Shown here: positions 1,050-22,468 of the stretch, in pieces | How positions within the stretch are numbered: the stretch's first letter is position 1 | How the letters are laid out: each line of letters starts with the position of its first letter | Virus record (IMG/VR): IMGVR_UViG_3300021256_000013 | Span: 1,183-65,182 of that record | Origin: a virus | Taxonomy: Duplodnaviria; Caudoviricetes | Strand: one strand, 5' to 3' | DNA length: 64,000 nt | Made by a program: the position numbers and the translations under genes | Notes under the pieces: generated by a model | Told to the model about the DNA's origin: nothing | What the model saw: only the letters and a program-made list of their open reading frames with translations | The model's database searches: none

Positions 1050-2540
1050 TTATCCGCTTGATCCCCAGTAGTTCTCTTTGCTGAGTGCATTGATCGCATC
1101 AGCTCCGGGAGCTACGCCGGTATGTTTCTTGATCTTGCCCAAGTACAGGCATAAAGAAAGAGCGTCAGCCCTGTCCGGGGAGTCAAGGCCGCGCTTCTTC
1201 ATATCGCTTTTCGGTTCGATTTCCAGCTTCCCATTGGAAGCCATGCGGTATTTTCTGCTGGCAAGCTGCGCGACTGTTTCTTCATCGTCGGATATCTCGA
1301 TCGTTTTGGCCTCGAGATGATCCCGCATCGTCGCCCACATGTCCGTTGTCAGATTGTTGTAGTGCTCTGCAGAGGCCTTCCCCATCTGGGTGTCAGTCTC
1401 AATCTTTTCCGCTGCATTGATCGGTATGATCACCATCTTATACAGCTTTTGCTCCTTCTTGACTTCCTTAAGTCGGTCCGTAACGCCACCGCCAAGGCCG
1501 GTATCATCGATCTGTATATATGTTTTGCCGAAGAAGTCCTTGTGTTCCTCATAGATCTTCTTGAACTCGGCAACCAGATCACCGACCGTGCTCATGAGAT
1601 CCTGGCCGCGCCGTTTTTTCACAAGCCTGCAGCGCCCCCTCATGTTCCGGAAGATGATCGTTTCATCGTCTCCGAATCTGGCAACGTCACAGCCAAGGAT
1701 TACGAACGGCATCTCTTTATCCGGTGGCAGCTCGTATGTTCTTGACGTGCATTGCTCAATCAAGGAAAGCGGGATAAAAACATCGTCCTCCTGAGATGGG
1801 AATTCTCCGAGGACTCTGACTTTCACCACGTTTGATTCGCGGCCATACTTCCGGATCAGCGCTTCAATGTTTTCCTTGTTCGTCCTTGGGCTGTCCTCAG
1901 ACGACACGGTATAGCATTTATATAGCGCCCGGTCTCTGGTATGGCTGTCATAGAATGTTCCTGACGTCCGTGTGGGGTTGCCTGTCAGGAGCAGCTTATT
2001 GTTCACACCAGAAAGTGTTCCGAGGATTGCCTCCATGATCTGCTCGTCAACACCGGAAGCCTCGTCCACGATGAAAAGCATGTTCTCTTCATGGAAGCCC
2101 TGCATGTTCTCAGGCTTAGTTGCTGTCCTTGCGACCGCAAACCATCGGCTTTCAGCACCTTTCACATAGACGTAGGTCTTTGTCCATTTCATGAGACGCG
2201 TCAGGATCGGGCTGTTGCCCATCCATTTACTGATCTCTGGCCAGAGGACGTCATTGAGCTGCCGCATCGTTGGGGCAGTGGCAACGACTCTGGAGTTCTC
2301 ATGAGAGAACAGGAACCAGAGCGCACAGCAGGCCACCGTGCCGGTCTTGCCGACACCCTGACCGGACTTTACCGTGATTCTGTTGACGCCTGGCGTGTTC
2401 AGGTCTTTCAGAATGTCCTTTTGCCATTCATCGGGAGAGAAGAGCAGAGCCTGCTTACAGAAAAGCTCCGGATCCTTCACCCAGCTCGGTATAGCCTGAC
2501 TTAAAAGGATCGCGTCCTCAGGATTGATTTTCATCTTCAC
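1050..2540 (-). CDS. terL: Terminase large subunit
   Basis: Walker A SGQGVGKT, Walker B FIVDEASG, LLTGNPTR coupling motif, nuclease LGCDVARFGDD and SPDRADAL. Confidence 0.95.
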   Translation of the reverse strand: MKMKINPEDAILLSQAIPSWVKDPELFCKQALLFSPDEWQKDILKDLNTPGVNRITVKSGQGVGKTGTVACCALWFLFSHENSRVVATAPTMRQLNDVLWPEISKWMGNSPILTRLMKWTKTYVYVKGAESRWFAVARTATKPENMQGFHEENMLFIVDEASGVDEQIMEAILGTLSGVNNKLLLTGNPTRTSGTFYDSHTRDRALYKCYTVSSEDSPRTNKENIEALIRKYGRESNVVKVRVLGEFPSQEDDVFIPLSLIEQCTSRTYELPPDKEMPFVILGCDVARFGDDETIIFRNMRGRCRLVKKRRGQDLMSTVGDLVAEFKKIYEEHKDFFGKTYIQIDDTGLGGGVTDRLKEVKKEQKLYKMVIIPINAAEKIETDTQMGKASAEHYNNLTTDMWATMRDHLEAKTIEISDDEETVAQLASRKYRMASNGKLEIEPKSDMKKRGLDSPDRADALSLCLYLGKIKKHTGVAPGADAINALSKENYWGSSG

Positions 2541-3417
2541 CCCTCGCTTTCCTCAGGCCTGCAAGATAGAGTGCCATCAGGTCTTCATCTGATCCGCTGG
2601 CGATCTTGTCCTTCTCAAGCAGAAGAGCAGCAAGCTTCGCTTCGACATCAGCGCGGGAGCGCTGAACCGTTGACAGTTCCTTTTCCCATCTCTGCAGGAC
2701 ATCATCTACGCTGCGTGTATTCGTGACGAGATGGAACCTCTCACCCGGAAGCCTGTCGCCTTTTTCGATCTTTTCCTGTATGGCCATTTTGTAAGCCAGC
2801 TCGTCTTCCTCAGTCTCGAAAGATCGCTTTTCTTCATCCTTCTGGATTGATTCTATGATGATCTTCTGGCCTTCCTTTAGTTCCTTGATCCTTTTCATGA
2901 TACGGAACTCCCTGACGCGGAACATTTGTATCTGCTCACGGTACAGGTCTTCCAGCTCCGTAGGTGTCTGATTAACTATTTCGTCTTCACCGTCCATCAG
3001 GCATCCACTCCAAAAAGGATCCGCGTATACGCCATGTTTTAGAGCGTTCCTACGCGGATCCGGGTTGCCCCTTCCACCAACAGCATTTTTATTGCCCTTC
3101 GGCGCACCGATTTTCTTCTTGGTCTTCTTGACCGTTTTCTTCGGATTATCGACGCTCAGGGCAATCGTTGCCGATTTCTTTTGTGTGGAACGTTCCACCT
3201 TCTTGCCTTGTGACTTTCCGGTGGAACGTTCCATCTCAGGAGGTGAACTATGAAGTGTTAGTTTGCTGTCCCATTTGTCCAGACTTTTCCACTTCCGTAT
3301 CTTGAGGTCGGGGAGCCGCAGATCCGCCGCAATGTCAACAAGCTTTCGCTTGCCGCCGCTTTCAAGATACATTTGCTCAGCGCGTTTGCGCTCATCGCTT
3401 CTGCGGTCTTCACACAT
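2518..3417 (-). CDS. terS: Terminase small subunit
   Basis: N-terminal HTH (RAEQMYLESGGKRKLVDIAADL...IRKWKSLDKW), GAPKGNKNA...NALKHG motif, upstream of terL. Confidence 0.88.
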   Translation of the reverse strand: MCEDRRSDERKRAEQMYLESGGKRKLVDIAADLRLPDLKIRKWKSLDKWDSKLTLHSSPPEMERSTGKSQGKKVERSTQKKSATIALSVDNPKKTVKKTKKKIGAPKGNKNAVGGRGNPDPRRNALKHGVYADPFWSGCLMDGEDEIVNQTPTELEDLYREQIQMFRVREFRIMKRIKELKEGQKIIIESIQKDEEKRSFETEEDELAYKMAIQEKIEKGDRLPGERFHLVTNTRSVDDVLQRWEKELSTVQRSRADVEAKLAALLLEKDKIASGSDEDLMALYLAGLRKARGEDENQS

Positions 3418-3525
3418 GCCCTCCTTTCCTCCTTCTTGATTTGTTTCGGATACGGCAGGAGGGAGGCCGCGACCGCCACCGCGCCGTCCGTTGTGTTATA
3501 TTGCATTTGCATATTGTGAATAGCA

Positions 3526-4062
3526 TCAGACTTTTACAATAATCTTTGCATTACTGTATCTGTCTCCGTCCTTCGTCATCATGTTCAGGAATTCCTCACG
3601 GGTGAATCCTGACAGCCTGAAGATCTCTTCCGGCTTCATACCGAGCTGTTTCCCGATCTCCTTTACCGTCTTTCCGTCCTTAATGAGGTTCTGGACGATT
3701 GCCTTCATCGGTTCCAGAAGGTGTGTTCCCCTTGCCCGATTATGTGTAATGGTTCCGTACACATCCGCGTCCGTGTCTCCGTGATGATCCACGATTACGA
3801 CAGGGACTTTCCCGCCGAGCTTTGTGCGCAGCGGTTCCCTTTGTGCCACAGTCCATCTGTGGAATCCGTCGATGATCGTATAATCCGGTTTCACCACGAT
3901 CGGTAGCGTCCAGCCATTCGTGAGGATCGACTGTATGAGCAGCTCCATGTTCTGGCCTGTCACCTTATTCGGGTTCCATCCGTTCGCATGCAGCTTCTCA
4001 ACCGGCACCCACTGGAGTGATCCGAGCGGTGCAAACAGGTCCATGGTTGATTTATCAGCCAT
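3526..4062 (-). CDS. ParB/Srx N-terminal domain protein, IbrB-like
   Basis: WVPVEKLHANGWNPNKV...SILTNGWTLPIVV...IIDGFHRW...HNRARGTH, adjacent to an IbrA-like gene. Confidence 0.85.
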   Translation of the reverse strand: MADKSTMDLFAPLGSLQWVPVEKLHANGWNPNKVTGQNMELLIQSILTNGWTLPIVVKPDYTIIDGFHRWTVAQREPLRTKLGGKVPVVIVDHHGDTDADVYGTITHNRARGTHLLEPMKAIVQNLIKDGKTVKEIGKQLGMKPEEIFRLSGFTREEFLNMMTKDGDRYSNAKIIVKV

Positions 4063-5200
4063 TGCGCACCTCCTTTCTCATATCCGTATTGGCACGGAGG
4101 AAGGTCTTTGTCCACAAGGCGCGGAGCTTCCGTCTTTTTGGATCACCTATCAGGAGTGCCTCATACAAATCGCGGTAATCATTCTGTGTCGCGAATCCCC
4201 AGGACTGCACGAAATAGGATTTGAAGGACGACAGGGTTTTCTTTGTCTCTGGAGGAATGTTATATCTCTCCGGGTGCAGGTACAGAATGTCCTGGCACAA
4301 GGCCTTGTAATCCTTCTTTTTCTCGTCCTTCTCCAGCTCACGGCGCTTTGCGGTCGATCTGCTGAAGAATTCCGAATCCCAGTAGAGCAGTACGAGGTAA
4401 GCATTCGGGTATCTTTTCTCGATCTTGTCCCAGAGCTCCGGATCCGTCTGTGCAATCCATCTGAGGCCGACCGTAGTGGTGTCCCCGAAGAATGAACACA
4501 GCCTGAGGCTTCTCCGGCTGCACCCTGCTTCATAGAGCCTCATGTAGATCTCCGGAAATTCCAGATTGCGCTCCTTTATGTACAGCCAGATATCATTGTC
4601 CGTCCAATCGTAGATTGGATAGAAGAGGCTTCCCGGTTTCGGCGTGGTCTTTGATACCGCAGCGACCGCGTGAAGGCGCTGGACGCTTTCCTGTGTCCTT
4701 ACGCCCACCATCATGATTCCGTCCGCGAATGCCACTTTATCGAATGACTGATAATTCATCTCGCCCGGATACTTCAGGTATGGGCTGTCCGTGATAGCTC
4801 CTTTCGGGGGCTGTCTCATCCATACATCTTCTTTTCCAGGCTCGAATGTGATCCAGCTTTCCGTATTGGAGAGCTGGTTCAGGCATGAGGCCTGCTTAAA
4901 CGGCAGGCATATCCAGAGGAATGGCACGCCGATTGCAGTAAACTTCCTCTGCCAGCGTTCCGCGTTCTCCACCATGGAGCGGTAGAGGCCTTCCTCATCT
5001 ATGAAAACGACGGTGAGAAGGCTTTTGTCGATCTCACCGCCGAGGAGCATTTGATATAAAATGTCTGACATCACCAGTGAATCTTTTCCGCAGGAGAATG
5101 CCATATAGACTTTTATCCCGTTGCTGAATGCGTTCCTGATCCGGATCCGCGCCGCGTCCAGCACCGTATGGGTCTTATCCTCGATCGTCCTTACAGCCAT
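4055..5200 (-). CDS. PAPS reductase-family (PP-loop) protein, IbrA-like
   Basis: AFSCGKDS PP-loop, VFIDEE, VGVRTQESVQR, YPIYDWTDNDIW. Confidence 0.85.
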   Translation of the reverse strand: MAVRTIEDKTHTVLDAARIRIRNAFSNGIKVYMAFSCGKDSLVMSDILYQMLLGGEIDKSLLTVVFIDEEGLYRSMVENAERWQRKFTAIGVPFLWICLPFKQASCLNQLSNTESWITFEPGKEDVWMRQPPKGAITDSPYLKYPGEMNYQSFDKVAFADGIMMVGVRTQESVQRLHAVAAVSKTTPKPGSLFYPIYDWTDNDIWLYIKERNLEFPEIYMRLYEAGCSRRSLRLCSFFGDTTTVGLRWIAQTDPELWDKIEKRYPNAYLVLLYWDSEFFSRSTAKRRELEKDEKKKDYKALCQDILYLHPERYNIPPETKKTLSSFKSYFVQSWGFATQNDYRDLYEALLIGDPKRRKLRALWTKTFLRANTDMRKEVRNG

Positions 5201-5814
5201 ATCTTTTCCCCGCATTTCGGGCAGATGATATAACGTCCGGATTCTGCAGGTGCGGATCCAATGTCCTGCGTTGCTCCGGCGGGCTGTGAAGGGGTCTCGG
5301 TTGCCTGGAATGGCGCCGCCGATCCGGCCTCCGTTCCTTCCCGCTTTTCCTCGATCTTCTTAATCGGTTCCGTGGCTGCCTGATCGAAGGTTCCATAGGA
5401 ATTGATCTCTTCGGCAACCTCATTCGCCGTCGCCGTGATCGTCCTCAGGAGATCTTCGTCCCAGCCGGGAACGTCCAGGTCGTCTTCAAGATCTTTGAGA
5501 ATCTGGTCGAAGGCCTTGTTATCCATCGCGCCAAGCTCATAGACCTTGTTGTCTGCCAACATCAGCTTTTCCTTCTGCTTTTTGGTCATTCCTTTGACCT
5601 GATAGCATTCAGCAGACTCCATTTCCATCTGCAGCATGGCCGTGTACAGGCCGTTTCCTGCGATGATGACGTTATTCTCGTCTATGACAATCGGCCTGAT
5701 CTGGCCGAACATTTTTATGGATCGGATATACTCCTGTATCTGGCGTGTCGGGTGCATCCTGATATTGATCTCTGATGGATGCAGGTCTGAGAGCTTTACC
5801 TTTATCACCTTCAT
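5191..5814 (-). CDS. ParB N-terminal domain protein with C-terminal Zn-ribbon
   Basis: Start MKVIKVK overlaps the previous stop (ATGA). RSIKMFGQIRPIVIDENNVIIAGNGLY...MLADNK, C-terminal CPKCGE. Confidence 0.85.
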   Translation of the reverse strand: MKVIKVKLSDLHPSEINIRMHPTRQIQEYIRSIKMFGQIRPIVIDENNVIIAGNGLYTAMLQMEMESAECYQVKGMTKKQKEKLMLADNKVYELGAMDNKAFDQILKDLEDDLDVPGWDEDLLRTITATANEVAEEINSYGTFDQAATEPIKKIEEKREGTEAGSAAPFQATETPSQPAGATQDIGSAPAESGRYIICPKCGEKIWL

Positions 5815-6602
5815 GCATCCACCTCCAGACTCTGGAGGAACGATTTGGCACCAGGAATTACCTGCGCGGCCTCTTCGATGATTGTGTGGTCGATCTCCCA
5901 GACTTCCCTGTATCCCTGTTCGGGCGTCTTCATGTTCAGCCTTGCCGGCCATGAGTGCGTTCCCTGTCTCCATCCGTCTTTCCATTCATAGATCGGCGGG
6001 AGAGGGAGCTTGAAATAGTGGATATATCCATACAGGAGCTCATGCGGCCAGTCGGCAAGAGGAGCGTATCTGTCGAATCCGTTATTCCGTCTTACATGCC
6101 TGTCCTGTCCGATATTATTTCCGTCTATTCTCCTGTGTCCGGAAATAATCATATCGAGTCCGTTATCCAGCTGATATCTCACATAGGTTTTCTGCTGGAT
6201 AATGGAATACCACCTTCCGAGTGTTGCCGAGTCCTGCGGGAAGATCATGTTCTGGTGCTTTTCCAACCATTGCAGATCCTGCCCGGAACAGATCATGTCA
6301 CATCCCTTCGGCGCGTGTTCCTTCACCCATGCCATGAATGCCGGATACTCGAGATTACTGTAGGCGAAGACGGATTTTTTGATACCGGCCTTCCTGCAGA
6401 TGTCTCCGAGGACGATGGAATCCTTTCCACCGCTCCATGCGAATGCTGCCGTCTTTCCGTCCAGTATCCTGTGGATATCCTCGATTGCTTCTTTCTGCGC
6501 TTTCTTTACTTCTTCGATGGTCACGTATTCTTCAATGTGGTCGATAACTGCCTGGACCTGTTCTGTGGTCGTGTTCTGTTTTCTTCCGAGTACCTTCTTC
6601 AT
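5811..6602 (-). CDS. Second PAPS reductase-family (PP-loop) protein
   Basis: AFAWSGGKDSIVL PP-loop, ISGHRRIDGN, YAPLADWPHE. Start MKKVLG overlaps the symporter stop. Confidence 0.82.
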   Translation of the reverse strand: MKKVLGRKQNTTTEQVQAVIDHIEEYVTIEEVKKAQKEAIEDIHRILDGKTAAFAWSGGKDSIVLGDICRKAGIKKSVFAYSNLEYPAFMAWVKEHAPKGCDMICSGQDLQWLEKHQNMIFPQDSATLGRWYSIIQQKTYVRYQLDNGLDMIISGHRRIDGNNIGQDRHVRRNNGFDRYAPLADWPHELLYGYIHYFKLPLPPIYEWKDGWRQGTHSWPARLNMKTPEQGYREVWEIDHTIIEEAAQVIPGAKSFLQSLEVDA

Positions 6603-7969
6603 GCTGCCACCGCCTTTCTTGAGGCGATCGTCAAAGCGATTGCTATGACTCCGGAGATCAGCACCGTGTAAAGCGCGAAGACGCTTTTCCATACGCTGAG
6701 TCCGTTCAGCGTGGCATATGAAAACAGGGGAAGGCCCGTACACAGGGCCGTGATCACTCCTGCAATCACGCCTCGTTTATCCAGATGCACATCGCAGAGC
6801 GTGAGCACCGTCGGCAGAAGAGTAGTGGCGCGAAGCGTACCGTAGATCAGGAACAGCTTCGATACGGTCAGGCCGGGGATTGACGCCACGCATATCCCTG
6901 CAGCGAGAAGCGCGACCATTGCGATTCTCGGTCTGCTTTCCTTCAGGTCCGTTGTGAGGCTTGCGACTGCGCAGAGGTTACTGTCAATCGTACTCAAAAG
7001 CCCTGAGACCATCATGAACAGGAACGGAACCATTACCCATGCCGGGAAGATCTTCCCGATCAACTCGAAGTTGACAAGTCCTGTGTTTTCAGCCTGCATT
7101 CCGGATCCGGCGGCGATGAAGCCGAGAGCGCCCATGCTCAGCGGTACGATGCCGAACAGGATCGCGCCGAGGAAGAATGACCTTCCGATCTTTTCCTTCT
7201 TGATGGAAAAGGCCCGCTGCCAGAAACACTGGTCTCCGAATGGACCTGAGATCAGGCCGATTGTGGTTGCCAGTCCTGTCGAGATGAAGACTGACCAGCC
7301 GCTTGATCCGAGCAGGCTCCGGAATTCTCCTGTGATTCCTCCGAGGCCCTTTACCAGATTGTTTACGCCGCCGTGCATCCCAAGCGCCCAAGGCACCATC
7401 AGCGCACAGCCGGCGAGGATCAGCGCCATCTGGATCACGTCGGTCAGGACAGAAGCACGGATCCCGGAGAACTGCGAATACGAAAAAGCGATTGCTGCTA
7501 GGATAATTGTTACCAGTATGAACGGCAGACCTGTGATCTTGCTGACGATGCTTCCTCCGGCCAGCAGCTGCACTGCCGTGGAGAGGATCGCCAGAAACGA
7601 GAGCTGGAATCCGTACACGCGCTTGACGCCCGCGCTTTTGTACTGCGTTCCCATGAATCCGGAAAGCGTGATGCCGTTCTGCATCTTTTCCCTGATCTTC
7701 TTAGCGAACGGGATAAAGAGCATCAGGCATAATACATTCGGCACGACAAACCAGAACAGTCCTGGTATGCCCATCTTATAGGCGTTCTCCGCAGAGACGA
7801 GCAGCGCCGGTGCCCATATCCATGTGGCTGCGATGCTCATGGCTGAAGGGAACGTTCCCATTTTCCGGTTGCCTACGTGAAAGTCTTCACCTTCACTCCG
7901 TTTTGTGAATAATAGTGTAGCTGTCAGCATGATCGCTGTGTACACCACGAGGATGACTATACCTATCAT
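6599..7969 (-). CDS. Sodium:solute symporter (SSS) family transporter
   Basis: About 13 hydrophobic segments, DFHVGNRKMG...SIAATWIWAPALL, GIRASVLTDVIQ, DQCFWQRAFS, SGLLSTIDSNL. RBS GGAGGAG before ATG 7969. Confidence 0.9.
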   Translation of the reverse strand: MIGIVILVVYTAIMLTATLLFTKRSEGEDFHVGNRKMGTFPSAMSIAATWIWAPALLVSAENAYKMGIPGLFWFVVPNVLCLMLFIPFAKKIREKMQNGITLSGFMGTQYKSAGVKRVYGFQLSFLAILSTAVQLLAGGSIVSKITGLPFILVTIILAAIAFSYSQFSGIRASVLTDVIQMALILAGCALMVPWALGMHGGVNNLVKGLGGITGEFRSLLGSSGWSVFISTGLATTIGLISGPFGDQCFWQRAFSIKKEKIGRSFFLGAILFGIVPLSMGALGFIAAGSGMQAENTGLVNFELIGKIFPAWVMVPFLFMMVSGLLSTIDSNLCAVASLTTDLKESRPRIAMVALLAAGICVASIPGLTVSKLFLIYGTLRATTLLPTVLTLCDVHLDKRGVIAGVITALCTGLPLFSYATLNGLSVWKSVFALYTVLISGVIAIALTIASRKAVAA

Positions 7970-8055
7970 TTTTCTCCTCCGTTTATGTTCATCCAACATT
8001 AACCGCTGCGAAGGAGTTGGCCATCCTGTTTATTCACTTCCTTTCCGGACATAGT

Positions 8056-8085
8056 AAAAGGGCCCTGGCGAACCAGAGCCCTTTT
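8056..8085. terminator. Intrinsic terminator hairpin in the late-operon leader
   Basis: AAAAGGGCCCTGG-CGAA-CCAGAGCCCTTTT, with T4 on both strands. Confidence 0.7.
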
Positions 8086-8128
8086 GTCTCTTCTCATGTG
8101 GCAAGCATGATCAAACTTCATCCCCTAT

Positions 8129-8157
8129 AACATACGCAATTTTGAAAACGAAGTCAA
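8129..8157 (-). promoter_or_regulatory. Putative late promoter
   Basis: TTGACT-N17-TATGTT on the minus strand, just downstream of the ArpU/RinA-like gene. Confidence 0.55.
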
Positions 8158-8187
8158 TAGCGAAACGCAGAAATTGCTAAACAAGTT

Positions 8188-8673
8188 TTATTCATTCGCA
8201 TTTTCCGCAACTTCACCCGGCGAAAAACGGAGCCCATCGACTCCAAAATATTTCGCCGAGAGATGTGCTTCCGCTTCCCGGAGGTCCATTTGAATCTGCC
8301 GGCGGGAGACTCCGAACTTTGCTGCCAGCTGACCTGTGTCCATGCGCTTTTTGGCGATATAGAACCAGAATATCACCTGTACCCTGCGTTTGTCCGTGTC
8401 GGATCCGCGCTGGGCATCCGCCTTATACGCCTTCATCATCGCTTCGATATCGGCGACCATAGTGCGCGTCCTCAGGATGGAACGGTATGTCGAGTCCAGT
8501 ATTACGTCATCGTCTCTGCCCTGCATCAGATCCTCGATCTGCTCAAAGCGCGTGCGCTGGTCAAGCATCCGGCTGTCATAGACGCCTTTATCGCATCTGT
8601 CCTTAAGGTCTCTGTAATGCTTAAGCAGAAGCCGGGTGTTGTGAAGTTTCCAGTCTTTCTTTTTGTCTCCCAC
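8188..8673 (-). CDS. Late transcriptional activator (ArpU/RinA-like, C-terminal HTH)
   Basis: NTRLLLKHYRDLK N-terminus, C-terminal HTH (MDTGQLAAKFGVSRRQIQMDLREA), positioned between the early genes and the packaging operon. Confidence 0.7.
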   Translation of the reverse strand: MGDKKKDWKLHNTRLLLKHYRDLKDRCDKGVYDSRMLDQRTRFEQIEDLMQGRDDDVILDSTYRSILRTRTMVADIEAMMKAYKADAQRGSDTDKRRVQVIFWFYIAKKRMDTGQLAAKFGVSRRQIQMDLREAEAHLSAKYFGVDGLRFSPGEVAENANE

Positions 8674-8894: not shown

Positions 8895-9069
8895 CCTCGT
8901 TTTCCTCCCCTCTTAGTATATCATACACTGTGATCTGGCCTGGTATCGCTCTGAATGTGTTTTCGCCAATAATTCCACTCCAGCATTCCGGACCGTAACC
9001 TCTCGCCTTTGACTCCGGATCCGTCAGCCTTTTTCCGCATCTTTGGCATCTGATCCACATGGTTCCCAT
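8818..9069 (-). CDS. DUF6011-like Zn-finger protein
   Basis: RCQRCGKRLTDPESKARGYGPECW. Confidence 0.7.
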   Translation of the reverse strand: MGTMWIRCQRCGKRLTDPESKARGYGPECWSGIIGENTFRAIPGQITVYDILRGEENEDETGNEVPNLRQDIRRSACTLPQGQ

Positions 9070-9380
9070 CCTTTTTCTGCAGCGACTCTCTGCCATGTCC
9101 GGTCAACCTTCATTTCCATGATCTTAGACAATTCAGCATCCGTGATGCTCATGAGGTGCATTATCTGATTGAGCATCACAATCACGTCGCCAGCTTCCTC
9201 TATCAGGTTACGCCGAACCTTTACCCGCTCAAAGACAGTGCTGGTCTTTTTGTATACGCGAATCACTTTGTTGGCCGCTGTTATCAGTTCACCACATTCT
9301 TCCATCAGTTGCCGAAGCTGTGACTCCGGACCGAGCGCTTTCGCAATACTGATATTCATCTGTTTATGCTCTGTGTCCAT
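9024..9380 (-). CDS. MazG-like nucleotide pyrophosphohydrolase
   Basis: QLRQLMEECGELITAANK...NLIEEAGDVIVMLNQI (EExxE...ExxD). Confidence 0.75.
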   Translation of the reverse strand: MDTEHKQMNISIAKALGPESQLRQLMEECGELITAANKVIRVYKKTSTVFERVKVRRNLIEEAGDVIVMLNQIMHLMSITDAELSKIMEMKVDRTWQRVAAEKGWEPCGSDAKDAEKG

Positions 9381-9381
9381 C

Positions 9382-9588
9382 TCAACCCCATTTCTTCCTT
9401 CCGCGTCTTGATTTTTTCTCTTCCATTTCCGCTTCCTTTTTCCTAAAGCAGGTCCATGAACACATGATATACTGCTTTCCGAACCATACCCTTGCATAAG
9501 CCCATGTATCAACGTAATAGCAGTGGAATACTTTCCCACATACCGGGCATGTAATCTCACCTACCGGTTTTGATGGCATCCTGCTCAC
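9382..9588 (-). CDS. Hypothetical Zn-binding protein
   Basis: CPVCGK...CSWTC. Confidence 0.55.
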   Translation of the reverse strand: MSRMPSKPVGEITCPVCGKVFHCYYVDTWAYARVWFGKQYIMCSWTCFRKKEAEMEEKKSRRGRKKWG

Positions 9589-10289
9589 CTCTCATAAACA
9601 ATCTCAAGCGGCTCAATCACATTTGGCAATGTCATGCCCATATGCATTCCATATAACTCAATGAAGCACCACAGCTGAAATTCCGTATATCCGTTTTCAT
9701 CTTCTCTCGGGAACCTTGGTTTGCATATCTCTCTTCCTGCGATCTGGTTTGTCCTGTCGTATTGGTGGTAATAGATTTCCTTGCCCCAGTCGGTCAGTTT
9801 AACCTTTATCAGTTCGTTGAGATTAATTCGGATAGGTTCTGGCTGTGCGGATGGCAAATGCTCTATGTCCGTTACATTAATAGTCTCCTCGACAACTTCA
9901 TATGTGCGGAGACTTCGCACTTTATTTCTCGGTAGCGCAAGCACCATTTTTCTGCTGATTAAATCGCACGAGTGCGTTTCCGTGCATTTTTCGGGCTGCG
10001 CGGTAAACACCTTTTTGCATTTGTCCATCTGGTCGCAATCTATCATTCCGCAGGCATTACATATTTTGTAATTTGCCGCCTGACGGCTGATTAACTCTCC
10101 AAAATTGTTGTCGAGTTCTGACGAGTTGTTGGAGACTTTCTGTGCCTTCTCCTGCGCTTCCAGTGCGTTGATTGCCATTTCTATAGCTTCTACGCCACTA
10201 TAGTCTGACCCTCGTGCCACCCTGAGATTTTCGAGTTCATAGTGCAAGCAGTCTAACATATCCTCCCTTGTCATCCCTCGCCCTCCCAA
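9585..10289 (-). CDS. Hypothetical phage protein
   Basis: Long ORF coupled to its neighbours in the early operon. Confidence 0.6.
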   Translation of the reverse strand: MGGRGMTREDMLDCLHYELENLRVARGSDYSGVEAIEMAINALEAQEKAQKVSNNSSELDNNFGELISRQAANYKICNACGMIDCDQMDKCKKVFTAQPEKCTETHSCDLISRKMVLALPRNKVRSLRTYEVVEETINVTDIEHLPSAQPEPIRINLNELIKVKLTDWGKEIYYHQYDRTNQIAGREICKPRFPREDENGYTEFQLWCFIELYGMHMGMTLPNVIEPLEIVYER

Positions 10290-15980: not shown

Positions 15981-17051
15981 TTAGATGTTCACTGGCAACA
16001 CGATCATTTTTAATGCCGAGTCTTCTTCCGAGATATAAACCGGAGCCCTCGGACCCATCAGCTTCAGTGTGATGATGTCTCCTGAATATCCTTTGAGCGC
16101 TTCCAGAAGCATTTTGGGATTCAGACCGATTTTCAGTTCTCCGGTAAAGTCTGTGTCCGCTTCCAGGATCTCGTGATATCCGCTCGTGCTTGCCACCAGT
16201 GTCATGTCAATGGTCTGGCCGTTGAGTTGTACGACCAGTGCGTGTTTCGTTTCATCCGAATTACACAGGTTCGCTCGGGTGAGTGCTGCGATCAAATCCA
16301 TTCTGTCAATGCGGAGCGCATGCAGCTGGTCGTCCGGTGCGAATAACTGATCTGTGTTGATGTACTTCCCGTCGATCAGCCTTGAATAGATCGTGTAGGC
16401 GGTTGTTTCAAAGACTGCACTTCTCCCATCGTGGGTAAGGGTGATGTTGTCATCCATATCCATGCTGATCAGTTTCCTGACTGTGTTCTTCGGTATGATC
16501 AGGTCCATATCGCTAACCCCGTCAGCGATAACCTCGTCGATCGCAACCATGTGGCCGTCAGTAGCCGTGATCTTGATGACCCCGCCTGTCGCACGGAGAT
16601 TGACACCTGTCAGTTCCCGCCTTGTCGATGTGTCATCTGAAGCGAACACCACCTTCGATAGTGCCTCCATCAGTTTCCCTCCAGGCAGTATGACTCCATC
16701 CGCATCAGGCCTCTCACGCCTGAGCGTGAAATCTAATACCTTGTAACTGCTGAACCGGCTGGTTGTCTTCCCGGCCTTGATGACTACTGTCAGGTCATTA
16801 TCCTGCTCAATATCAAGCTCACCTTCCGGTAGGTTCCGAACCATGTCGAATGCCCTCATAGGCAACAGGAGAGAAGTGCCGCCAGAAGCCTCTAATTTGA
16901 CCTCTAACGTAATCTCCGTATTTGATGCAATAGCTCTTTGTCCGTCAATTAAAAGCGCCGAGAGCGCCGGGATGGACGCGTTCTTCTGAACAATTCCTTT
17001 CGCTTTGTCGATTGCCCTCATCAATTCGTATCGGTTAATCTTCATAGTCAT
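15981..17051 (-). CDS. dnaN: DNA polymerase III beta sliding clamp homologue
   Basis: 356 aa. ELTGVNL...ITATDGHMVA, IYSRLIDGKY, IGLNPKMLLEAL, MIVLPV C-terminus. Confidence 0.9.
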   Translation of the reverse strand: MTMKINRYELMRAIDKAKGIVQKNASIPALSALLIDGQRAIASNTEITLEVKLEASGGTSLLLPMRAFDMVRNLPEGELDIEQDNDLTVVIKAGKTTSRFSSYKVLDFTLRRERPDADGVILPGGKLMEALSKVVFASDDTSTRRELTGVNLRATGGVIKITATDGHMVAIDEVIADGVSDMDLIIPKNTVRKLISMDMDDNITLTHDGRSAVFETTAYTIYSRLIDGKYINTDQLFAPDDQLHALRIDRMDLIAALTRANLCNSDETKHALVVQLNGQTIDMTLVASTSGYHEILEADTDFTGELKIGLNPKMLLEALKGYSGDIITLKLMGPRAPVYISEEDSALKMIVLPVNI

Positions 17052-17574: not shown

Positions 17575-17881
17575 ATCTTTTTGCCACCTCCAAAAGCTTG
17601 CTGATGGTAACCGCTCCAATCCCGGGGATTTTCTCTTTCTTCAGGACGTCTATGAAATCCTGGGCGGTTGGTTCTTTCTTTGCATGGACGTTCCTGTCGC
17701 ATGACTCGCATATCGCTTTGCCTGCGTCCTTTGCATCATCCGAGGCTTCTTCATAAGCCTTCTTCCGGATCTCCTCCATGTACTCCGTTATCTGCATGTC
17801 CGTCATCTTCCTGATCCGAACTGCTACAGCATGAGCCGCATTTTCCTCATTTGTTCTCCGGCAGCTTCTTTTCTTTGCCAT
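17543..17881 (-). CDS. Hypothetical protein
   Basis: CRRTNEENAAHAVAVRIRKMTDMQI...IPGIGAVTISKL. Confidence 0.65.
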   Translation of the reverse strand: MAKKRSCRRTNEENAAHAVAVRIRKMTDMQITEYMEEIRKKAYEEASDDAKDAGKAICESCDRNVHAKKEPTAQDFIDVLKKEKIPGIGAVTISKLLEVAKRYGFIQPVTAR

Positions 17882-18896
17882 TCTCTATCTCCTTTTCATG
17901 TCTCAGATATTCTTCAAAGCCGTAAATCTTGTGTTTCTTACAGAATTTTGAGTAGCAATCAAAGCACATAGCCCCGATCCGGATGCAGGTGTACCGCTTG
18001 TTTTTGTAGGCCGTTCCAACCCTGGCCTGCAGTGTGACCATATTGTGCTTCTTCAGCTTCTTCCGGCACTCCATGCATTTGTCTGTCGTGAGCCAGGACT
18101 GGAGCCTGCCCATTCCACGGAGAGTGAGCTCATCCGGGTATTCCTGCGACATTAGTTCTTCGCCAACGATCGGGCTGAGATTATCCCTCATAAACACCGG
18201 CACTTCCATTTTGTCGGCCAGCGCGAGTATTGACTCTATCCACTTTCGCTGCGGAACCACTTTGTTCTTTACCCGCCCTGTCATGGCTCCGATCGTGATC
18301 CAATCAACCCCTTCCAGATCCTCTGGTGAAAGGAAGAGCTCTTCCGTCAGCGGCTCAAAGTTCACAAATGTTTTTCTTCCGGAGGGAAGCAGGTCCACTT
18401 TCTCAATATCCTTGTTCTTTGTGATCGTGACTCCGTACCAGTAGTGATTCCCTTCCGGCAGTTCCACCTGCCCATATCTTTTTGGGTTTCTGGTCAGGAA
18501 CATGTAGTAATGCTGCGGTGTCGCAGCGCAAGTTTCAAAAACGAAACGGATCCAGTCATCCGGTATGCTGTCACCGAACCCGTCCGAGATTGCATTTACC
18601 AGTACGCGGCGGCTTTCACGGATAGGTCGGTAATCATTTGCTTTATACCTGTGGAGGGTGGGAGAGGGGCCAAACGGATATTCAACGATCCTTCCGGTCT
18701 CATCCCTGATCGGGGACTGCAGGTCATAGCATCCTCCTGTCTCCGTAAAGATGTCCGTCATAGCCTTGTGCCGCCTGGTGTCTCCGCCCTGCGCTTTCGT
18801 GAGGCGCTTCGCAAAGCAGTAATCGCAGTCGTACTCACAGCCGGTAATCAGGTTGTAGGTGTATTCGGCCCATTCAATTCTCGTGTACTGCATCAT
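17847..18896 (-). CDS. DUF5131 (phage Gp37/Gp68) radical-SAM-like protein
   Basis: TRIEWAEYTYNLITGCEYDCDYCFA (CX3CX2C), HYYMFLTRNP, FVNFEPL, DWITIGAMTG. Confidence 0.82.
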   Translation of the reverse strand: MMQYTRIEWAEYTYNLITGCEYDCDYCFAKRLTKAQGGDTRRHKAMTDIFTETGGCYDLQSPIRDETGRIVEYPFGPSPTLHRYKANDYRPIRESRRVLVNAISDGFGDSIPDDWIRFVFETCAATPQHYYMFLTRNPKRYGQVELPEGNHYWYGVTITKNKDIEKVDLLPSGRKTFVNFEPLTEELFLSPEDLEGVDWITIGAMTGRVKNKVVPQRKWIESILALADKMEVPVFMRDNLSPIVGEELMSQEYPDELTLRGMGRLQSWLTTDKCMECRKKLKKHNMVTLQARVGTAYKNKRYTCIRIGAMCFDCYSKFCKKHKIYGFEEYLRHEKEIENGKEKKLPENK

Positions 18897-19083
18897 CCAC
18901 CTCCCAGTATTCGACCGTGTATTCCATCTGCGCATTCTTCTTGCCTTCGGATCCTTCCACGGGTTTACGGTTTATGAAGACTGCGTACCCGCATTTTGCA
19001 AGGAGTTGCACCAGATATAACCGGTCTTCCTCGTTCCATTGAACCGAGCCTTTTCTGATGCTCCTTATGACCTGTCTTTTCAT
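18874..19083 (-). CDS. Small hypothetical protein
   Basis: WNEEDRLYLVQLLAKCGYAV...YTVEYWE. Confidence 0.65.
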   Translation of the reverse strand: MKRQVIRSIRKGSVQWNEEDRLYLVQLLAKCGYAVFINRKPVEGSEGKKNAQMEYTVEYWEVDDAVHEN

Positions 19084-21116
19084 CAGCTGGCCCTCACTTT
19101 CATGCTCTGGCTATCTTTCGCTATCTCATGCATTTTTCTTTCAAATGCGCTTACGAAGGCCTTCACATCTTTTGGCATGTCGCAGTTGTGGGATCCTCTG
19201 CATTGGATGACCCTGTTATCACGCCACTCCATAGTGAAGAACGGTCTTTCCGGTTCTTCAACCCTGCGCACAAACAGGATCGTTGTCTTTCCTTCTGCGA
19301 CCCTGTTCGCATAAGTTGCGACACAATGGTGCAGTGTCTTGCCTTCTTCCTTGAGTTCATCCACTGATCCGGGAAGTCTGATCAGATACTTCTTTGTTTC
19401 CATGTGCATCGGGTCAACACCGGTCATGGATTTCATCTGCTCCTTAATGATCTTGTCGATACCTTCAACGGCTTTCCTGATGTTGGCGTCGCGTTTCTCC
19501 TGGAGCTCCCTATATACCCTGTCATGCGTTTTTCTGAAATCCGGTGGCATCAGGACATATGGATCATTCAAGTCATACCCGAGTTCCCCGCACCAATCTG
19601 TGTAATCCGTCCAGTCATGGAAGAAATTTGCCCGGGTTGATGCGTCCTTTTTCCATCTGCCAGCTTGTTTCTTTGCGTATCTGGCGAACTTCCTGATGGA
19701 CAATCCATGGGCGAATATTGCCCGGAGTATTGTTGTGCTCGTGCCAAAGGCATCGATAAACTCCTGTAATTCTGATCTATTCACATCCTTCATGCAGCGC
19801 TCTACTTCACGGAACAGGCCAATCATGCTGTTTCCTCCGTTCAGCTCACGCAGCATCCGGAGATGAGGCTTTGAAAGCAGCTTCAATTCCTTCAGGACAT
19901 TCGGTTCATGCCAGTACAGGATATTGCGGATATTCTCCATCGCAAGTTTTGAAAGTCCTGTTTTTGCAAGCATTTCCAGCTCATTGCATTTCTCATAAGC
20001 CCTGAGATACTGGAATACCGGTATGTGTCTGAATTCTTCTTTCTCCTGCAGGGATTCCAGCCCGCTATACCGATATGGCGTATCTGCCAGCAGATCTCTC
20101 AGACCGTCCCTTCGTATGATGAATTCCGTTACATTGTTCTTCCCGACGTCCGGGCACCAACGCTCACTGTGACTCTGTTTGTACTCTGCATATTCAAAGC
20201 ACTCCCAGCTGTACCCGTTCATGAAGATCCTGCCAAACTCATGTATATGCTGCGTCTTTTTGATCATCAGCAACGGCATTTCCGTCTTGCGAAAAACATA
20301 ACTGATTGAGAAACACCGGAAGAGAAGACGACCGTCCTCGATCTTCTGGACAATCACCACGTTGTTTTCGGCAAGCTCCGTTTCGTGCCATCGCTTCATG
20401 GTCTTCATGAAAACCGGGCTCCCGCAGCACGGGCATTCGCCCCATTCATTCATCCGCAGCCTGACTTCTCTGGAATCGATCTCCATATGCTGACCGCATT
20501 CCGTGCAGAATGCCTGTCTGATCCGGATCTTGCTGTTGCCGTCATAGATCAGATACCGGCGGGATCTCATTCCGTAGTCGTGGATCCACGTCTCAAAGTC
20601 TTCCGGAAGGCCCGGGACAAGCTCCATCATCAGGTTCGTGTGTGCCAGTTCCCGTTCGTGCCTTTCACTGAGCCGTCTCGCCAGTATTTTGTCCTGCCAG
20701 TCCTCAACCGTTATGAACGGCGTTTTCTCCTGATTGCTCCACCAGCTTCTTGCGGCCGGCGGGAAGCGGCGTTCGAACAGTTTCCGGCTTTTGGTATCTA
20801 CGAACACCACGCTATTCCAAGGGCTGTTCCAGTATCCAACCTGGAGAGTGTTGGACATTTTCCCTGTCAGCCATTTTGTCTTCTCTACGGTAAGATCCTG
20901 CGTGATATAATCGTCCTCGCTCAGGAAGAAGCGGTACTTTGCCTGCGTGGTGCCTTCCGTCCGCATATCCACGGCGCTCCATGCACTTACCTGCAGGATC
21001 CCATCTAACTCTGATACATGAAGGAGCCATCGGCTTTGTTCCGCGTTCCTGGCCAGCTCTATGTATTCCGGCTTTGCCACTGGCCTTGGTATCTGCCGGA
21101 GCAATTTCTTATCCAT
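19083..21116 (-). CDS. PcfJ domain-containing protein
   Basis: C-terminal LKEEGKTLHHCVATYANRV...ILFVRRVEEPERPFFTME...QCRGSHN, internal CTECG/CPCCG Zn fingers. Confidence 0.88.
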   Translation of the reverse strand: MDKKLLRQIPRPVAKPEYIELARNAEQSRWLLHVSELDGILQVSAWSAVDMRTEGTTQAKYRFFLSEDDYITQDLTVEKTKWLTGKMSNTLQVGYWNSPWNSVVFVDTKSRKLFERRFPPAARSWWSNQEKTPFITVEDWQDKILARRLSERHERELAHTNLMMELVPGLPEDFETWIHDYGMRSRRYLIYDGNSKIRIRQAFCTECGQHMEIDSREVRLRMNEWGECPCCGSPVFMKTMKRWHETELAENNVVIVQKIEDGRLLFRCFSISYVFRKTEMPLLMIKKTQHIHEFGRIFMNGYSWECFEYAEYKQSHSERWCPDVGKNNVTEFIIRRDGLRDLLADTPYRYSGLESLQEKEEFRHIPVFQYLRAYEKCNELEMLAKTGLSKLAMENIRNILYWHEPNVLKELKLLSKPHLRMLRELNGGNSMIGLFREVERCMKDVNRSELQEFIDAFGTSTTILRAIFAHGLSIRKFARYAKKQAGRWKKDASTRANFFHDWTDYTDWCGELGYDLNDPYVLMPPDFRKTHDRVYRELQEKRDANIRKAVEGIDKIIKEQMKSMTGVDPMHMETKKYLIRLPGSVDELKEEGKTLHHCVATYANRVAEGKTTILFVRRVEEPERPFFTMEWRDNRVIQCRGSHNCDMPKDVKAFVSAFERKMHEIAKDSQSMKVRAS

Positions 21117-21651
21117 TGAGTCCTCCAAACAGATCGAAGATGGACATCTGCCCGGATTCCTCGTCTTTTTCCTTCTGCGTCTTCTTCGGTTTCTTCTGCG
21201 CCTTCGGTTTCGCCAGGATCTCAGGCTCCGGTTCATCCTCGTCCTTCTTGCCTTCCTCTGGCTTTGCTGTGGCCTTCTCTATGGCTTTCTTCATGTCGTA
21301 TGTAGAAGTCTTAGGCTTTGCGGGCTTCGTCTTGCCAGAGGTCTTTTCTGCGGCCTTCCCGGCCACCTTCTCGACATCCTTGTCTGTTCCCCTGTAGTAG
21401 TCTTCGGCCCATTCGAAAACCGTCTCGTCGATAATTGCAGCGGCTTTCTGTCCTCCTGCCATTTTCCGTGCCTTCTCATAGATGTACTTGAAGCACTGTT
21501 CCCAGCTTTTCTGATTCTTCAGCACATCCTTCGCAAGGCCCTCGTCTTCCTCGATGCGTTTGATCAGGTAATCAATGATCGGCTTAGCAAATGATTTCTG
21601 CTTCGCGGCTTTCAATTCCTCCCGAAGCTTGCTGATAGCTTTGTCTTTCAT
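21109..21651 (-). CDS. PcfK-like / AcrIIA9-family protein
   Basis: KSWEQCFKYIYEKARK...IIDETVFEWAEDYY, acidic/basic tail ending QMSIFDLF, upstream of pcfJ. Confidence 0.72.
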   Translation of the reverse strand: MKDKAISKLREELKAAKQKSFAKPIIDYLIKRIEEDEGLAKDVLKNQKSWEQCFKYIYEKARKMAGGQKAAAIIDETVFEWAEDYYRGTDKDVEKVAGKAAEKTSGKTKPAKPKTSTYDMKKAIEKATAKPEEGKKDEDEPEPEILAKPKAQKKPKKTQKEKDEESGQMSIFDLFGGLNG

Positions 21652-22468
21652 TCAGTTCCTCCTCTCTGAAGTTGAAAAAGAATGTGTACTTTCTGACCGG
21701 ATCCGGTTCTATGGCCGGTGTTCTGACTCTGGTCAGAAGATCCATCTTCCTGCCGATCCTCCTGATGCTCCACTCGTCACGATAGAAGAAAGGCGTGTAC
21801 CAAAATTCCTGTCCTTCTTTTTCATCAGGTATCAGCACATCCCCCGTCATTGGATTGCTGAGCGTATCGGCGATAACTATGTAGCCCGGCATTCCGAGCA
21901 GTGACATCTGGATATAGGCCATCATGCCGGCGATCCTGTCTATATCCTGCCCAACAAAGAGCATCGAATTCTGGTAATTGATTCCCATGATCCTTGCCTT
22001 GCTGGCAGCTGCGACCATCATGGCACCGCCTCCGATGCACGGATCGCAAATGGAAATCCATCCGTCACGCTCGATCTTTCCCTTCAGGTCGTCCATTTGG
22101 ATATCTGCCATGAGATGGCACAGGCTGTATGGGGTGAAGAATTGTCCGTGCCAGTGCGACCCAAGCTCAAACCTCATGTAGAGAGAGCCGAGGAAATCCT
22201 GATCTGGATTCGCTTCCAGCGCGTCCACTACCACACCGAAGGCTTTCGCAGGAAGATCAATACCGCCGCACCGTTTCAGGCAGCCCTGATATTCCTTTTC
22301 GCGTCTTTGCCTTCTCACGCTGTCCGGATCAAGCGCGTTGCTGATGGAGGTGGCCATCATGGTTATGAGGTCTGCCCATACTTCCCACTTCATCCGGTTG
22401 TAAGTCAGCTTATCCATGATCTTCTCGAATTCCTTCTCGTACTCGTCCTTGGCCTTGAAGTGCCTCAC
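21584..22468 (-). CDS. N-6 DNA methylase-like protein
   Basis: GQFFTPYSLC, ICDPCIGGGAM (motif I), GQDID, ADTLSNP. Confidence 0.82.
   Translation of the reverse strand: MRHFKAKDEYEKEFEKIMDKLTYNRMKWEVWADLITMMATSISNALDPDSVRRQRREKEYQGCLKRCGGIDLPAKAFGVVVDALEANPDQDFLGSLYMRFELGSHWHGQFFTPYSLCHLMADIQMDDLKGKIERDGWISICDPCIGGGAMMVAAASKARIMGINYQNSMLFVGQDIDRIAGMMAYIQMSLLGMPGYIVIADTLSNPMTGDVLIPDEKEGQEFWYTPFFYRDEWSIRRIGRKMDLLTRVRTPAIEPDPVRKYTFFFNFREEELNERQSYQQASGGIESREAEIIC

Follow-up and report, generated by a model that had tools for sequence, protein, structure and literature searches.

We analyzed a 64,000-nucleotide window of DNA from a rumen phage, corresponding to bases 1183–65182 of a complete IMG/VR virus record (IMGVR_UViG_3300021256_000013; Caudoviricetes; 65,182 bp with direct terminal repeats), and focused on a cassette of five genes that precedes the packaging genes. 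The five genes are all encoded on the minus strand, with successive overlaps of 4, 4, 10, and 8 nt. The first gene, SSS (6599–7969), encodes a 456-aa importer of the sodium:solute symporter family (PF00474, 2.8e-23; phrog_20720, 2.5e-166). It is followed by PP1 (5811–6602), a PP-loop protein with the motif WSGGKDS (PF01507, 5.9e-10; phrog_424, 2.6e-18), and by ParB1 (5191–5814; phrog_620, 6.6e-47), which consists of a ParB-N domain, an acidic linker, and a C-terminal CPxCG motif. The last two genes are IbrA (4055–5200), with the motif FSCGKDS (PF01507, 3e-14; phrog_2302, 7.2e-76), and IbrB (3526–4062; phrog_2159, 1.9e-70), which carries ParB-N and helix-turn-helix (HTH) regions and the motifs DGFHRW and HNRARGTH. 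Upstream of the cassette are a leader and a phrog_1558 HTH protein gene, and downstream are terS, terL, and the portal gene. A first-pass annotation of the window had described five tightly coupled genes between a late promoter region and terS, and the coordinates, overlaps, and family matches agree with that description.

The distribution of the cassette was determined in IMG/VR and in sequenced genomes. Relatives of SSS were found in 143 IMG/VR contigs, and the order SSS-(PP1)-ParB1-IbrA-IbrB was kept in all 80 contigs fetched for layout, with cassette proteins 40–70% identical and differing terminases. With one genome counted per species, SSS was present in 159 genomes; wherever the flanking DNA of these loci was long enough to judge, the order was the same, except in three deletion remnants. 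The importer-(PP1)-ParB1-IbrA-IbrB order recurs in approximately 240 fetched phage or prophage loci, an arrangement far beyond chance. The co-occurrence of the transporter with the PP-loop and ParB genes across related phages, on which the first-pass annotation depended, was strict for ParB1, IbrA, and IbrB, with PP1 being optional. In a single locus (L285, 3703–6263), an intact SSS (462 aa) stands directly before terS without ParB1, IbrA, or IbrB, which may reflect a deletion or hint at a stand-alone value of the importer.

SSS-containing genomes with a named taxon all belonged to Clostridia, including Lachnospiraceae, Oscillospiraceae, and Ruminococcus, except for one 5.5-kb contig of a "Bacteroidales" metagenome-assembled genome (MAG). 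Cassette prophages were present in the cultured strains Anaerotruncus colihominis DSM 17241, Acetatifactor muris DSM 23669, and Agathobaculum desmolans ATCC 43058. A full SSS-PP1-ParB1-IbrA-IbrB-terS array was also observed in the Clostridioides difficile chromosome OX246690.1 (L177, 6980–12126), with 37–66% identity to the window proteins. A ruminal Candidatus Copromorpha MAG contained the cassette at 89–98% protein identity, suggesting that this organism is the likely host. Ruminant gut metagenomes from nine or more further studies contained near-identical DNA, and contigs from four independent studies bridged the whole cassette and both junctions. The cassette is not an assembly artefact.

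The importer was then characterized at the residue level. SSS scored 82.9 bits against PF00474 (cut-off, 22.8), which places it in the sodium:solute symporter family, but 109 bits against TIGR00813, under the cut-off of 184, suggesting a divergent family member. In a comparison of the phage SSS profile with solved structures, the best matches were DUR3 (2.7e-19) and sfCHT (5.8e-19). Judged by its sequence, SSS is best placed in a subfamily specific to phages, with DUR3 and CHT1 as its nearest relatives. The urea site of AtDUR3 (W93, W95, T98, Y117, Q124, N305, D312, Y315, and W338; PMC11840088) was not reproduced. In the HMMER alignment, only W93 and W95, the Trp pair of transmembrane helix 1 (TM1), and D312, the Asp of TM6, were kept, and the other six urea-contacting positions were A, F, C, L, F, and F; the C stands at Q124, where members of the subfamily have Cys, Thr, or Ala. 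The choline site of sfCHT (cage residues W99, Y126, W176, W298, and W445; Q303/R304 gate; 10.1101/2025.09.30.678764) was not reproduced either. Only W99 and the QR gate were kept, with Y126, W176, and W298 replaced by L, L, and D and W445 not mapped. The pattern of pocket and coupling residues was conserved over 106 SSS cluster representatives with identities down to 31%. Substrates of the DUR3/CHT1 branch are small nitrogen compounds, and the SSS subfamily probably has one conserved substrate, a small amine-type or urea-like nitrogen compound.

A distant SSS branch (31% identity) was also observed in environmental phages without IbrAB (L249, 3212–7452; L248, 1420–3531). The gene directly upstream of SSS in this branch encodes a protein of 229 aa that is conserved and shows an HxD...H pattern, and two genes upstream in L249 is a 390-aa protein with the PP-loop-like motif SWSGGIDS. 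Neither protein belongs to a Pfam family.

SSS is not present in the cultured Faecalibacterium phage FP_Taranis. Its position is occupied there by a 333-aa "transporter membrane protein", hereafter T2, for which no Pfam, NCBIfam, or PHROG family was found. T2 was detected in 141 IMG/VR contigs, and among the 80 fetched for layout, 62 had the order T2-ParB1-IbrA-IbrB and 14 the order T2-PP1-ParB1-IbrA-IbrB; the cassette order was kept in 76/80, FP_Taranis included. The AlphaFold2 model of T2 (pLDDT 82, pTM 0.82) gave human CHT1 as its best Foldseek match (9bfj; TMq 0.70, E 1.8e-4), followed by other LeuT-fold carriers. In hhalign, SSS and T2 were collinear over 199 columns at a probability of only 8.5%, and the TM1 and TM6 motifs were common to both. 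The modeled fold and these motifs suggest that T2 belongs to the same branch as SSS. We rejected the view of SSS and T2 as unrelated kinds of importer that would offer independent clues to the substrate because of the CHT1-like fold of T2 and the common TM1 and TM6 motifs.

Comparison with a sister phage (L167; 65,784 bp) revealed the unit of exchange. In blastn, L167 showed 88% DNA identity to window positions 9591–8009 and 86% to 5861–813, and only weak similarity patches were found in the segment between them (5862–8008, minus strand). The 2.1-kb SSS and PP1 segment is replaced in L167 by a 331-aa T2 and another PP1. Thus, both importers are exchangeable in one genetic background, and the exchange unit is the importer plus PP1. 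The IbrA of the window was closer to the IbrA of FP_Taranis (58%) than to SSS-linked IbrA (~40%), and the SSS and PP1 of the window were taken from the other, SSS lineage.

PP1 is a small PP-loop ATP pyrophosphatase with the 3′-phosphoadenosine 5′-phosphosulfate (PAPS) reductase fold and an intact PP-loop; it is an optional part of the cassette and moves together with the importer. It was missing in approximately 14 of the 80 SSS loci and 62 of the 80 T2 loci, whereas ParB1 was always retained. In a quick tree, with T2 loci narrowly sampled, PP1 sequences separated according to the type of importer, with a single change (SH-aLRT 92). The first-pass annotation had assumed two enzymes, each with its own ParB partner. 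This pairing was not borne out, as PP1 is exchanged along with the importer while ParB1 stays, and the ParB1 family also partners unrelated DNA-modifying enzymes.

IbrA matched phrog_2302 over residues 16–357 and IbrB matched phrog_2159 over residues 8–176, and the two adjacent genes form an IbrA/IbrB pair, a type listed under COG3969 and DUF3440. Control searches with phrog_2302 and phrog_2159 matched most genomes, and these matches are hence unspecific for kinship to Escherichia coli YbdN/YbdM. No biochemical study of IbrA/IbrB, YbdN/YbdM, DUF3440, or a ParB protein with a PAPS reductase was found in the literature searched. In the AlphaFold2 model (pLDDT 75), IbrA is predicted to consist of an intact PP-loop domain, similar to CysD and FMN adenylyltransferase, and a helical C-terminal domain. 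The best VIA-align matches of the N-terminal domain were CysD (Z 12.8, rmsd 3.7, 168 aligned), the PAPS domain of human FAD synthase (Z 12.6, rmsd 3.4, 160 aligned), and APS reductase (Z 12.4, rmsd 3.6, 174 aligned). TilS, NAD and GMP synthetases, and TtuA/NcsA scored lower, and no clear structural match was obtained for the helical C-terminal domain. Sequence-profile searches of the PDB with IbrA, PP1, IbrB, and ParB1 gave weak generic matches only. On the model, the closest folds to IbrA are adenylyltransferases acting on oxyanions (CysD and FMN adenylyltransferase). In a comparison of distant IbrA proteins from phages of Streptococcus, Microcystis, and Pseudomonas, the invariant positions were the PP-loop and several Asp, Glu, Lys, and Arg residues. 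At positions 75 and 118, which are Cys in over 90% of SSS-linked IbrA, the IbrA of the window has Ser and Thr; a Cys lies inside its PP-loop (SCGKDS).

The complete PP-loops of IbrA and PP1 imply that both enzymes should split ATP into AMP-X and PPi. In the phage record, neither a cysteine desulfurase nor a thymidylate-synthase-like gene, as used in the hydroxymethyl-pyrimidine route, was found. PF01702, the tRNA-guanine transglycosylase (TGT) family, also had no match in the complete record; the control matched 14/14 genomes, and the divergent phrog_887 type was not searched. These results make sulfur transfer, deazaguanine exchange, and hydroxymethyl-pyrimidine routes unlikely, so that ATP-dependent adenylyl transfer remains.

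We also examined the two ParB-like proteins. ParB1 had no Pfam match at the 0.01 limit. Its matches besides phrog_620 were to DNA methyltransferase models, namely the phrog_498 N-domain (2.2e-31) and PADLOC MTase_II (8.7e-15). ParB1 had initially been labeled a ParB-N/Zn-ribbon protein. The phrog_620 match upholds the ParB-N part, and the Zn-ribbon part is reduced to a single conserved C-terminal CPxCG, i.e., half a ribbon, with no significant zinc-ribbon match. IbrB, with a mean column identity of 75% over 25 phages, scored 26.0 bits against ParB_N (cut-off, 26.3) and aligned weakly by profile with ParB, Spo0J, and Noc, the HTH region included. The features of a canonical ParB (ParB_N above cut-off, a GERR-type arginine box, and a parS/ParA context) were not found together. 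The arginine-box position reads DGFHRW in IbrB and AGNGL, without Arg, in ParB1, and ParA is not present in the cassette neighborhood. In a three-chain prediction, ParB1 against IbrA plus IbrB reached an ipSAE of 0.47 (runs 0.10, 0.47, and 0.47; best control 0.00), with a contact agreement of at least 39% and a partner pLDDT of at least 51. The ipSAE mark was reached by 58/80 solved complexes and 2/110 mismatched pairs, and a pass at 0.60 or under was seen in only 7/80 solved complexes and in both mismatches. This prediction lends weak support to the binding of ParB1 to IbrA/IbrB.

To place the cassette among related phages, packaging-module relatives were collected via terL (567 in IMG/VR), and the slot between the regulator and terS was compared in those with a 57–72% identical terL and the same regulator family. 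Four kinds of content were seen in the phages of this set that lack IbrA/IbrB, and those with a modifying enzyme in the slot had terL identities of 57–64%. In L316, the slot holds a phrog_620 ParB and a C5 cytosine DNA methylase (5.9e-43). In L326 and L328, it holds a phrog_620 ParB, a TET-associated-glycosyltransferase (TAGT)-like protein (4e-10), and a UDP-sugar dehydrogenase. In eight loci (L296–L300, L303, L307, and L308), a phrog_620 ParB is accompanied by a DpdA-like protein of phrog_887 (9.9e-55), a family labeled "queuine tRNA-ribosyltransferase", and by an importer of the Vut_1/YhhQ family (1.9e-47); L296 (4383–6246) is an example of this importer-fed deazaguanine-type module, which stands directly before terS. 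The slot of L306 is empty. YhhQ is a preQ0 importer whose phage copies lie beside DpdA (PMC6884629), and DpdB, a ParB-like ATPase of bacterial Dpd systems, is needed for DpdA insertion (PMC12839542). These slot contents suggest that the ParB1 family is a generic partner of DNA-modifying enzymes, and we read ParB1 as a general partner that targets the enzymes of this slot to DNA. Furthermore, the DpdA-like and YhhQ loci provide a direct precedent in sister phages for a design of enzyme plus precursor importer. A transporter in a phage late operon had been considered hard to explain as a simple metabolic gene; for an importer next to a DNA-modifying gene, the pairing of DpdA with YhhQ is a published phage precedent (PMC6884629). 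The contents of the slot and the precedent that they provide are the strongest argument for a cassette acting on DNA, though one from position.

The sequences flanking the cassette were also inspected. The leader (7970–8187, minus strand) contains a promoter-like site, a GC-rich terminator hairpin with a U-tract, the Shine-Dalgarno (SD)-like element GGAAAGGAAG, CTCCTTC, and then the true SD. SSS starts at M11 of its open reading frame (ORF), after the SD sequence GGAGGAG. The left edge of the swapped segment (~8008) falls inside the leader, and identity to the sister phage ends at 8009. The leaders of L001–L080 similarly show a TAAAAT-like box, a GC-rich hairpin followed immediately by a U-tract, the SD-like GGAAAGGAGG, a CTCCTT(C) anti-SD-like element that often lies in a hairpin loop, and a true AAGGAGG SD. 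From these elements, the importer leaders look like an antitermination and/or translational switch. Rfam gave no family in the window and none significant in the leader, and no riboswitch that would name a ligand was found. Directly upstream is a late-regulator candidate, an HTH protein of 161 aa (8188–8673, minus strand; phrog_1558, 1e-35; weak HTH matches). Homologues stand ahead of the cassette in most of the related loci, and the corresponding FP_Taranis gene carries the annotation of a RinA-like activator.

On the downstream side, terS (terminase small subunit; 2518–3417, minus strand; PF10668, 1.8e-12) forms the edge of the slot and is followed by terL (terminase large subunit; 1050–2540, minus strand), which has weak P-loop and gpA ATPase matches. 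Between IbrB and terS is an 84-aa ORF without a family match (3258–3512), which runs into the annotated start of terS in a different reading frame; the equivalent region of FP_Taranis contains a small ORF and a DUF6275 gene. The replication-side genes of the window (9024–9560, 15981–17051, 17847–18935, 19083–21236, and 21584–22468) include a weak MazG-like match that falls just short of the Pfam cut-off, the beta clamp of DNA polymerase III, a DUF5131 (gp37/gp68-type) protein, a PcfJ-like protein, and an N6 DNA methylase, indicating that the phage also has an ordinary DNA methyltransferase.

On balance, we lean slightly toward the interpretation that the cassette directs a late-made, ParB-guided, adenylylation-driven modification of phage DNA that is fed by an imported small nitrogen compound. 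From the sequence data, the importer is most readily described as a proton- or sodium-coupled LeuT-fold carrier that is translationally coupled to ParB1, IbrA, and IbrB. It would bring in a small nitrogen-bearing compound, cationic or urea-like. PP1, optional and inherited with the importer, would probably pre-process this compound. ParB1 and, via its HTH, IbrB would position IbrA on replicated phage DNA shortly before packaging, where IbrA may adenylate a DNA oxygen (a backbone phosphate or base carbonyl) and AMP may then give way to the imported compound or to one of its derivatives. The resulting mark would shield the DNA from host restriction or defense. A narrower proposal, which we put forward tentatively and regard as rather doubtful, is that IbrA couples an imported amine-type compound to the adenylated DNA oxygen in a new modification, such as a backbone phosphoramidate or base amination. 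The idea of a substrate-importing DNA modification system, raised by the first-pass annotation, thus stands in outline on the co-occurrence, the DUR3/CHT1 branch, and the slot, but without the enzyme–ParB pairing and without the sulfur chemistry.

Several points weigh against the proposed DNA modification. We know of no precedent for the attachment of an amine to DNA by an enzyme of the PAPS-reductase fold, and to our knowledge no cassette-bearing phage has had a modified base or backbone measured in its DNA. As no hydroxymethyl-pyrimidine route and no TGT (PF01702) were found in the phage, IbrA would have to act on canonical DNA. IbrA/IbrB pairs of other phages are importer-free and lie outside the packaging position, e.g., after the lysis genes in a Streptococcus thermophilus phage and in the recombination module of a Microcystis phage. 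ParB/Srx folds can be small-molecule kinases, and IbrB has a weak SerK match (E 0.0023). Moreover, L285 has SSS alone before terS, the neighbors in the slot argue by position only, and the one experiment on E. coli IbrAB known to us reportedly concerns gene expression.

Some of these points would fit a small-molecule pathway that does not involve DNA, which we consider unlikely, although it survives better than the other alternatives. In such a pathway, an imported vitamin-like or amine compound would be phosphorylated by a ParB/Srx fold and adenylylated by IbrA or PP1 to give a nucleotide-linked cofactor, signal, or counter-defense metabolite, or a polyamine would simply be supplied for DNA condensation at packaging. 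The best structural matches of IbrA, CysD and FMN adenylyltransferase, are small-molecule enzymes, and the ParB-fold serine kinase SerK is the weak match of IbrB. PP1 travels with the importer, SSS is kept alone next to terS in L285, and the distant environmental branch of SSS stands near a protein with an SGGIDS motif in the absence of IbrAB. Yeast DUR3 also carries polyamines. However, IbrB has an HTH after its ParB-N region and aligns with ParB, Spo0J, and Noc, and the ParB1 family, which corresponds to the N-domain found in phage DNA methyltransferases, accompanies DNA enzymes in this slot. Furthermore, apart from deletion remnants and one locus, the importer was never found without ParB1-IbrA-IbrB.

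A regulatory or RNA-directed role appears improbable. IbrA/IbrB would then modify tRNA or other RNA, as do TilS- and TtuA-like enzymes, or act at a DNA site for late genes, with the importer supplying a cofactor or signal. The relatives are named "Co-activator of prophage gene expression IbrA/IbrB" in GenBank, the PP-loop RNA modifiers TilS, NcsA, and TtuA are among the fold matches of IbrA, and the cassette heads the late operon after an elaborate leader. In contrast, the RNA enzymes score below CysD and FMN adenylyltransferase, no RNA-binding domain was detected, and sister phages use the slot for DNA modifiers. The empty slot in one related phage indicates that the cassette is not needed for late expression.

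Sulfur chemistry, i.e., DNA phosphorothioation or thiolation of the DndC/SspD/BrxP type or a sulfate-assimilation auxiliary gene (CysH/CysD), is highly improbable. Both enzymes match PF01507, weak DndC and BrxP matches were obtained, and a published survey counts such genes as cysH/cysD auxiliary metabolic genes (AMGs) (10.1101/2021.01.05.425418). Most SSS-linked IbrA have four near-invariant Cys, and 52 of 67 PP1 copies have the CysH-like motif CGTH. However, no Cys is invariant across the IbrA family, and the IbrA of the window lacks two of the four. At the Cys position, the PP1 of the window has Q, and T2-linked copies have Y or E. The catalytic Cys of CysH (ECGLH-type) is thus absent from window PP1, and IbrA has no such motif. 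These residues make sulfur chemistry unlikely. CysH has a degenerate PP-loop, whereas IbrA and PP1 both keep the full PP-loop. The DndC model TIGR03183 scored 18.9 bits (cut-off, 290.4), PADLOC DndC matched only a 55-residue stretch (5.9e-5), and the conserved Cys that, together with partner genes, characterize DndC, SspD, and BrxP were not found. A tblastn search of the flanks with the window proteins revealed only cassette and packaging genes, with no DndD/E- or SspBC-like partner seen; DndA/D/E, SspB/C, and BrxC/Z/L-like partners were not searched directly. In addition, DUR3/CHT1-like importers are not a known sulfur-uptake type. The option that sulfur is attached to DNA was therefore not supported, given the lack of a family-wide IbrA Cys, the Q in window PP1, and the missing desulfurase.

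Phage membrane proteins at operon heads can be morons or superinfection-exclusion or lysis-timing proteins unrelated to the adjacent enzymes, and SSS stands alone in L285, but we give hardly any weight to such a role, because SSS is translationally coupled and strictly syntenic in ~240 loci, its pocket and coupling residues are conserved in 106 clusters with identities down to 31%, and T2, a transporter of the same fold, takes its place in a sister phage.

IbrA/IbrB-type genes are among the commonest AMGs of gut viromes and are routinely tallied as sulfur metabolism. A DNA-directed module with its own nutrient importer would change how virome surveys read such genes, and the cassette may uncover novel DNA chemistry and a novel strategy against restriction. 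If true, the proposed modification would be new chemistry made by a widespread enzyme pair to which a sulfur-metabolism label is wrongly attached, and it would account for the presence of IbrA/IbrB in hundreds of phages. The parts were already annotated in FP_Taranis, and the literature labels them cysH, IbrAB, or ParB and counts them as cysH/cysD AMGs. New here are the exact swap of importer plus PP1 in a pair of sister phages, the finding that T2 has a CHT1-like fold, the precedent of DpdA and YhhQ at this same slot, and the analysis of cysteines in IbrA and PP1. The natural sister-phage pair differing only in the importer plus PP1 unit provides a handle for experiments, as do the cultured phage FP_Taranis and the cassette prophages in cultured strains.

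Compared with known systems, the cassette is most similar to gp35–gp38 of FP_Taranis, which share the order importer, ParB, IbrA, IbrB, terS, with 58% identity of IbrA to gp37 and 76% of IbrB to gp38. FP_Taranis differs in having the 333-aa T2 and no PP1, where the window has the 456-aa SSS and PP1. The importer resembles DUR3 and CHT1/sfCHT of the SLC5 branch, with the best sequence and fold matches and the TM1 Trp pair, the DUR3 TM6 Asp, and the CHT QR gate kept. Unlike in DUR3, the urea hydrogen-bonding residues are replaced by hydrophobic residues or, at Q124, by Cys, Thr, or Ala, and unlike in CHT, four of the five aromatic-cage residues are not kept (three mapped, one not mapped) in this phage-specific subfamily. 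PP1 resembles the "PAPS reductase" proteins of phrog_424 and lambda NinC, which is annotated in the PAPS-reductase family, a likeness by annotation and not by direct comparison; NinC is located in the nin region with no importer beside it and was listed as non-essential by earlier work (PMC10695390). With DndB/DndC, and likewise SspD and BrxP, the cassette shares the combination of a ParB-superfamily protein and a PAPS-reductase-fold ATP pyrophosphatase acting on DNA (PMC10853773, PMC12914056), but IbrA has no conserved Cys or Fe-S signature and scores far below the family cut-offs. Phage Dpd systems for 7-deazaguanine salvage (DpdA plus YhhQ) follow the same logic in the same slot of eight related phages. 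Unlike in these systems, the enzyme of the window is a PP-loop ATP pyrophosphatase without a PF01702 TGT match in the record, and its importer is of the SSS/LeuT rather than the Vut_1 type.

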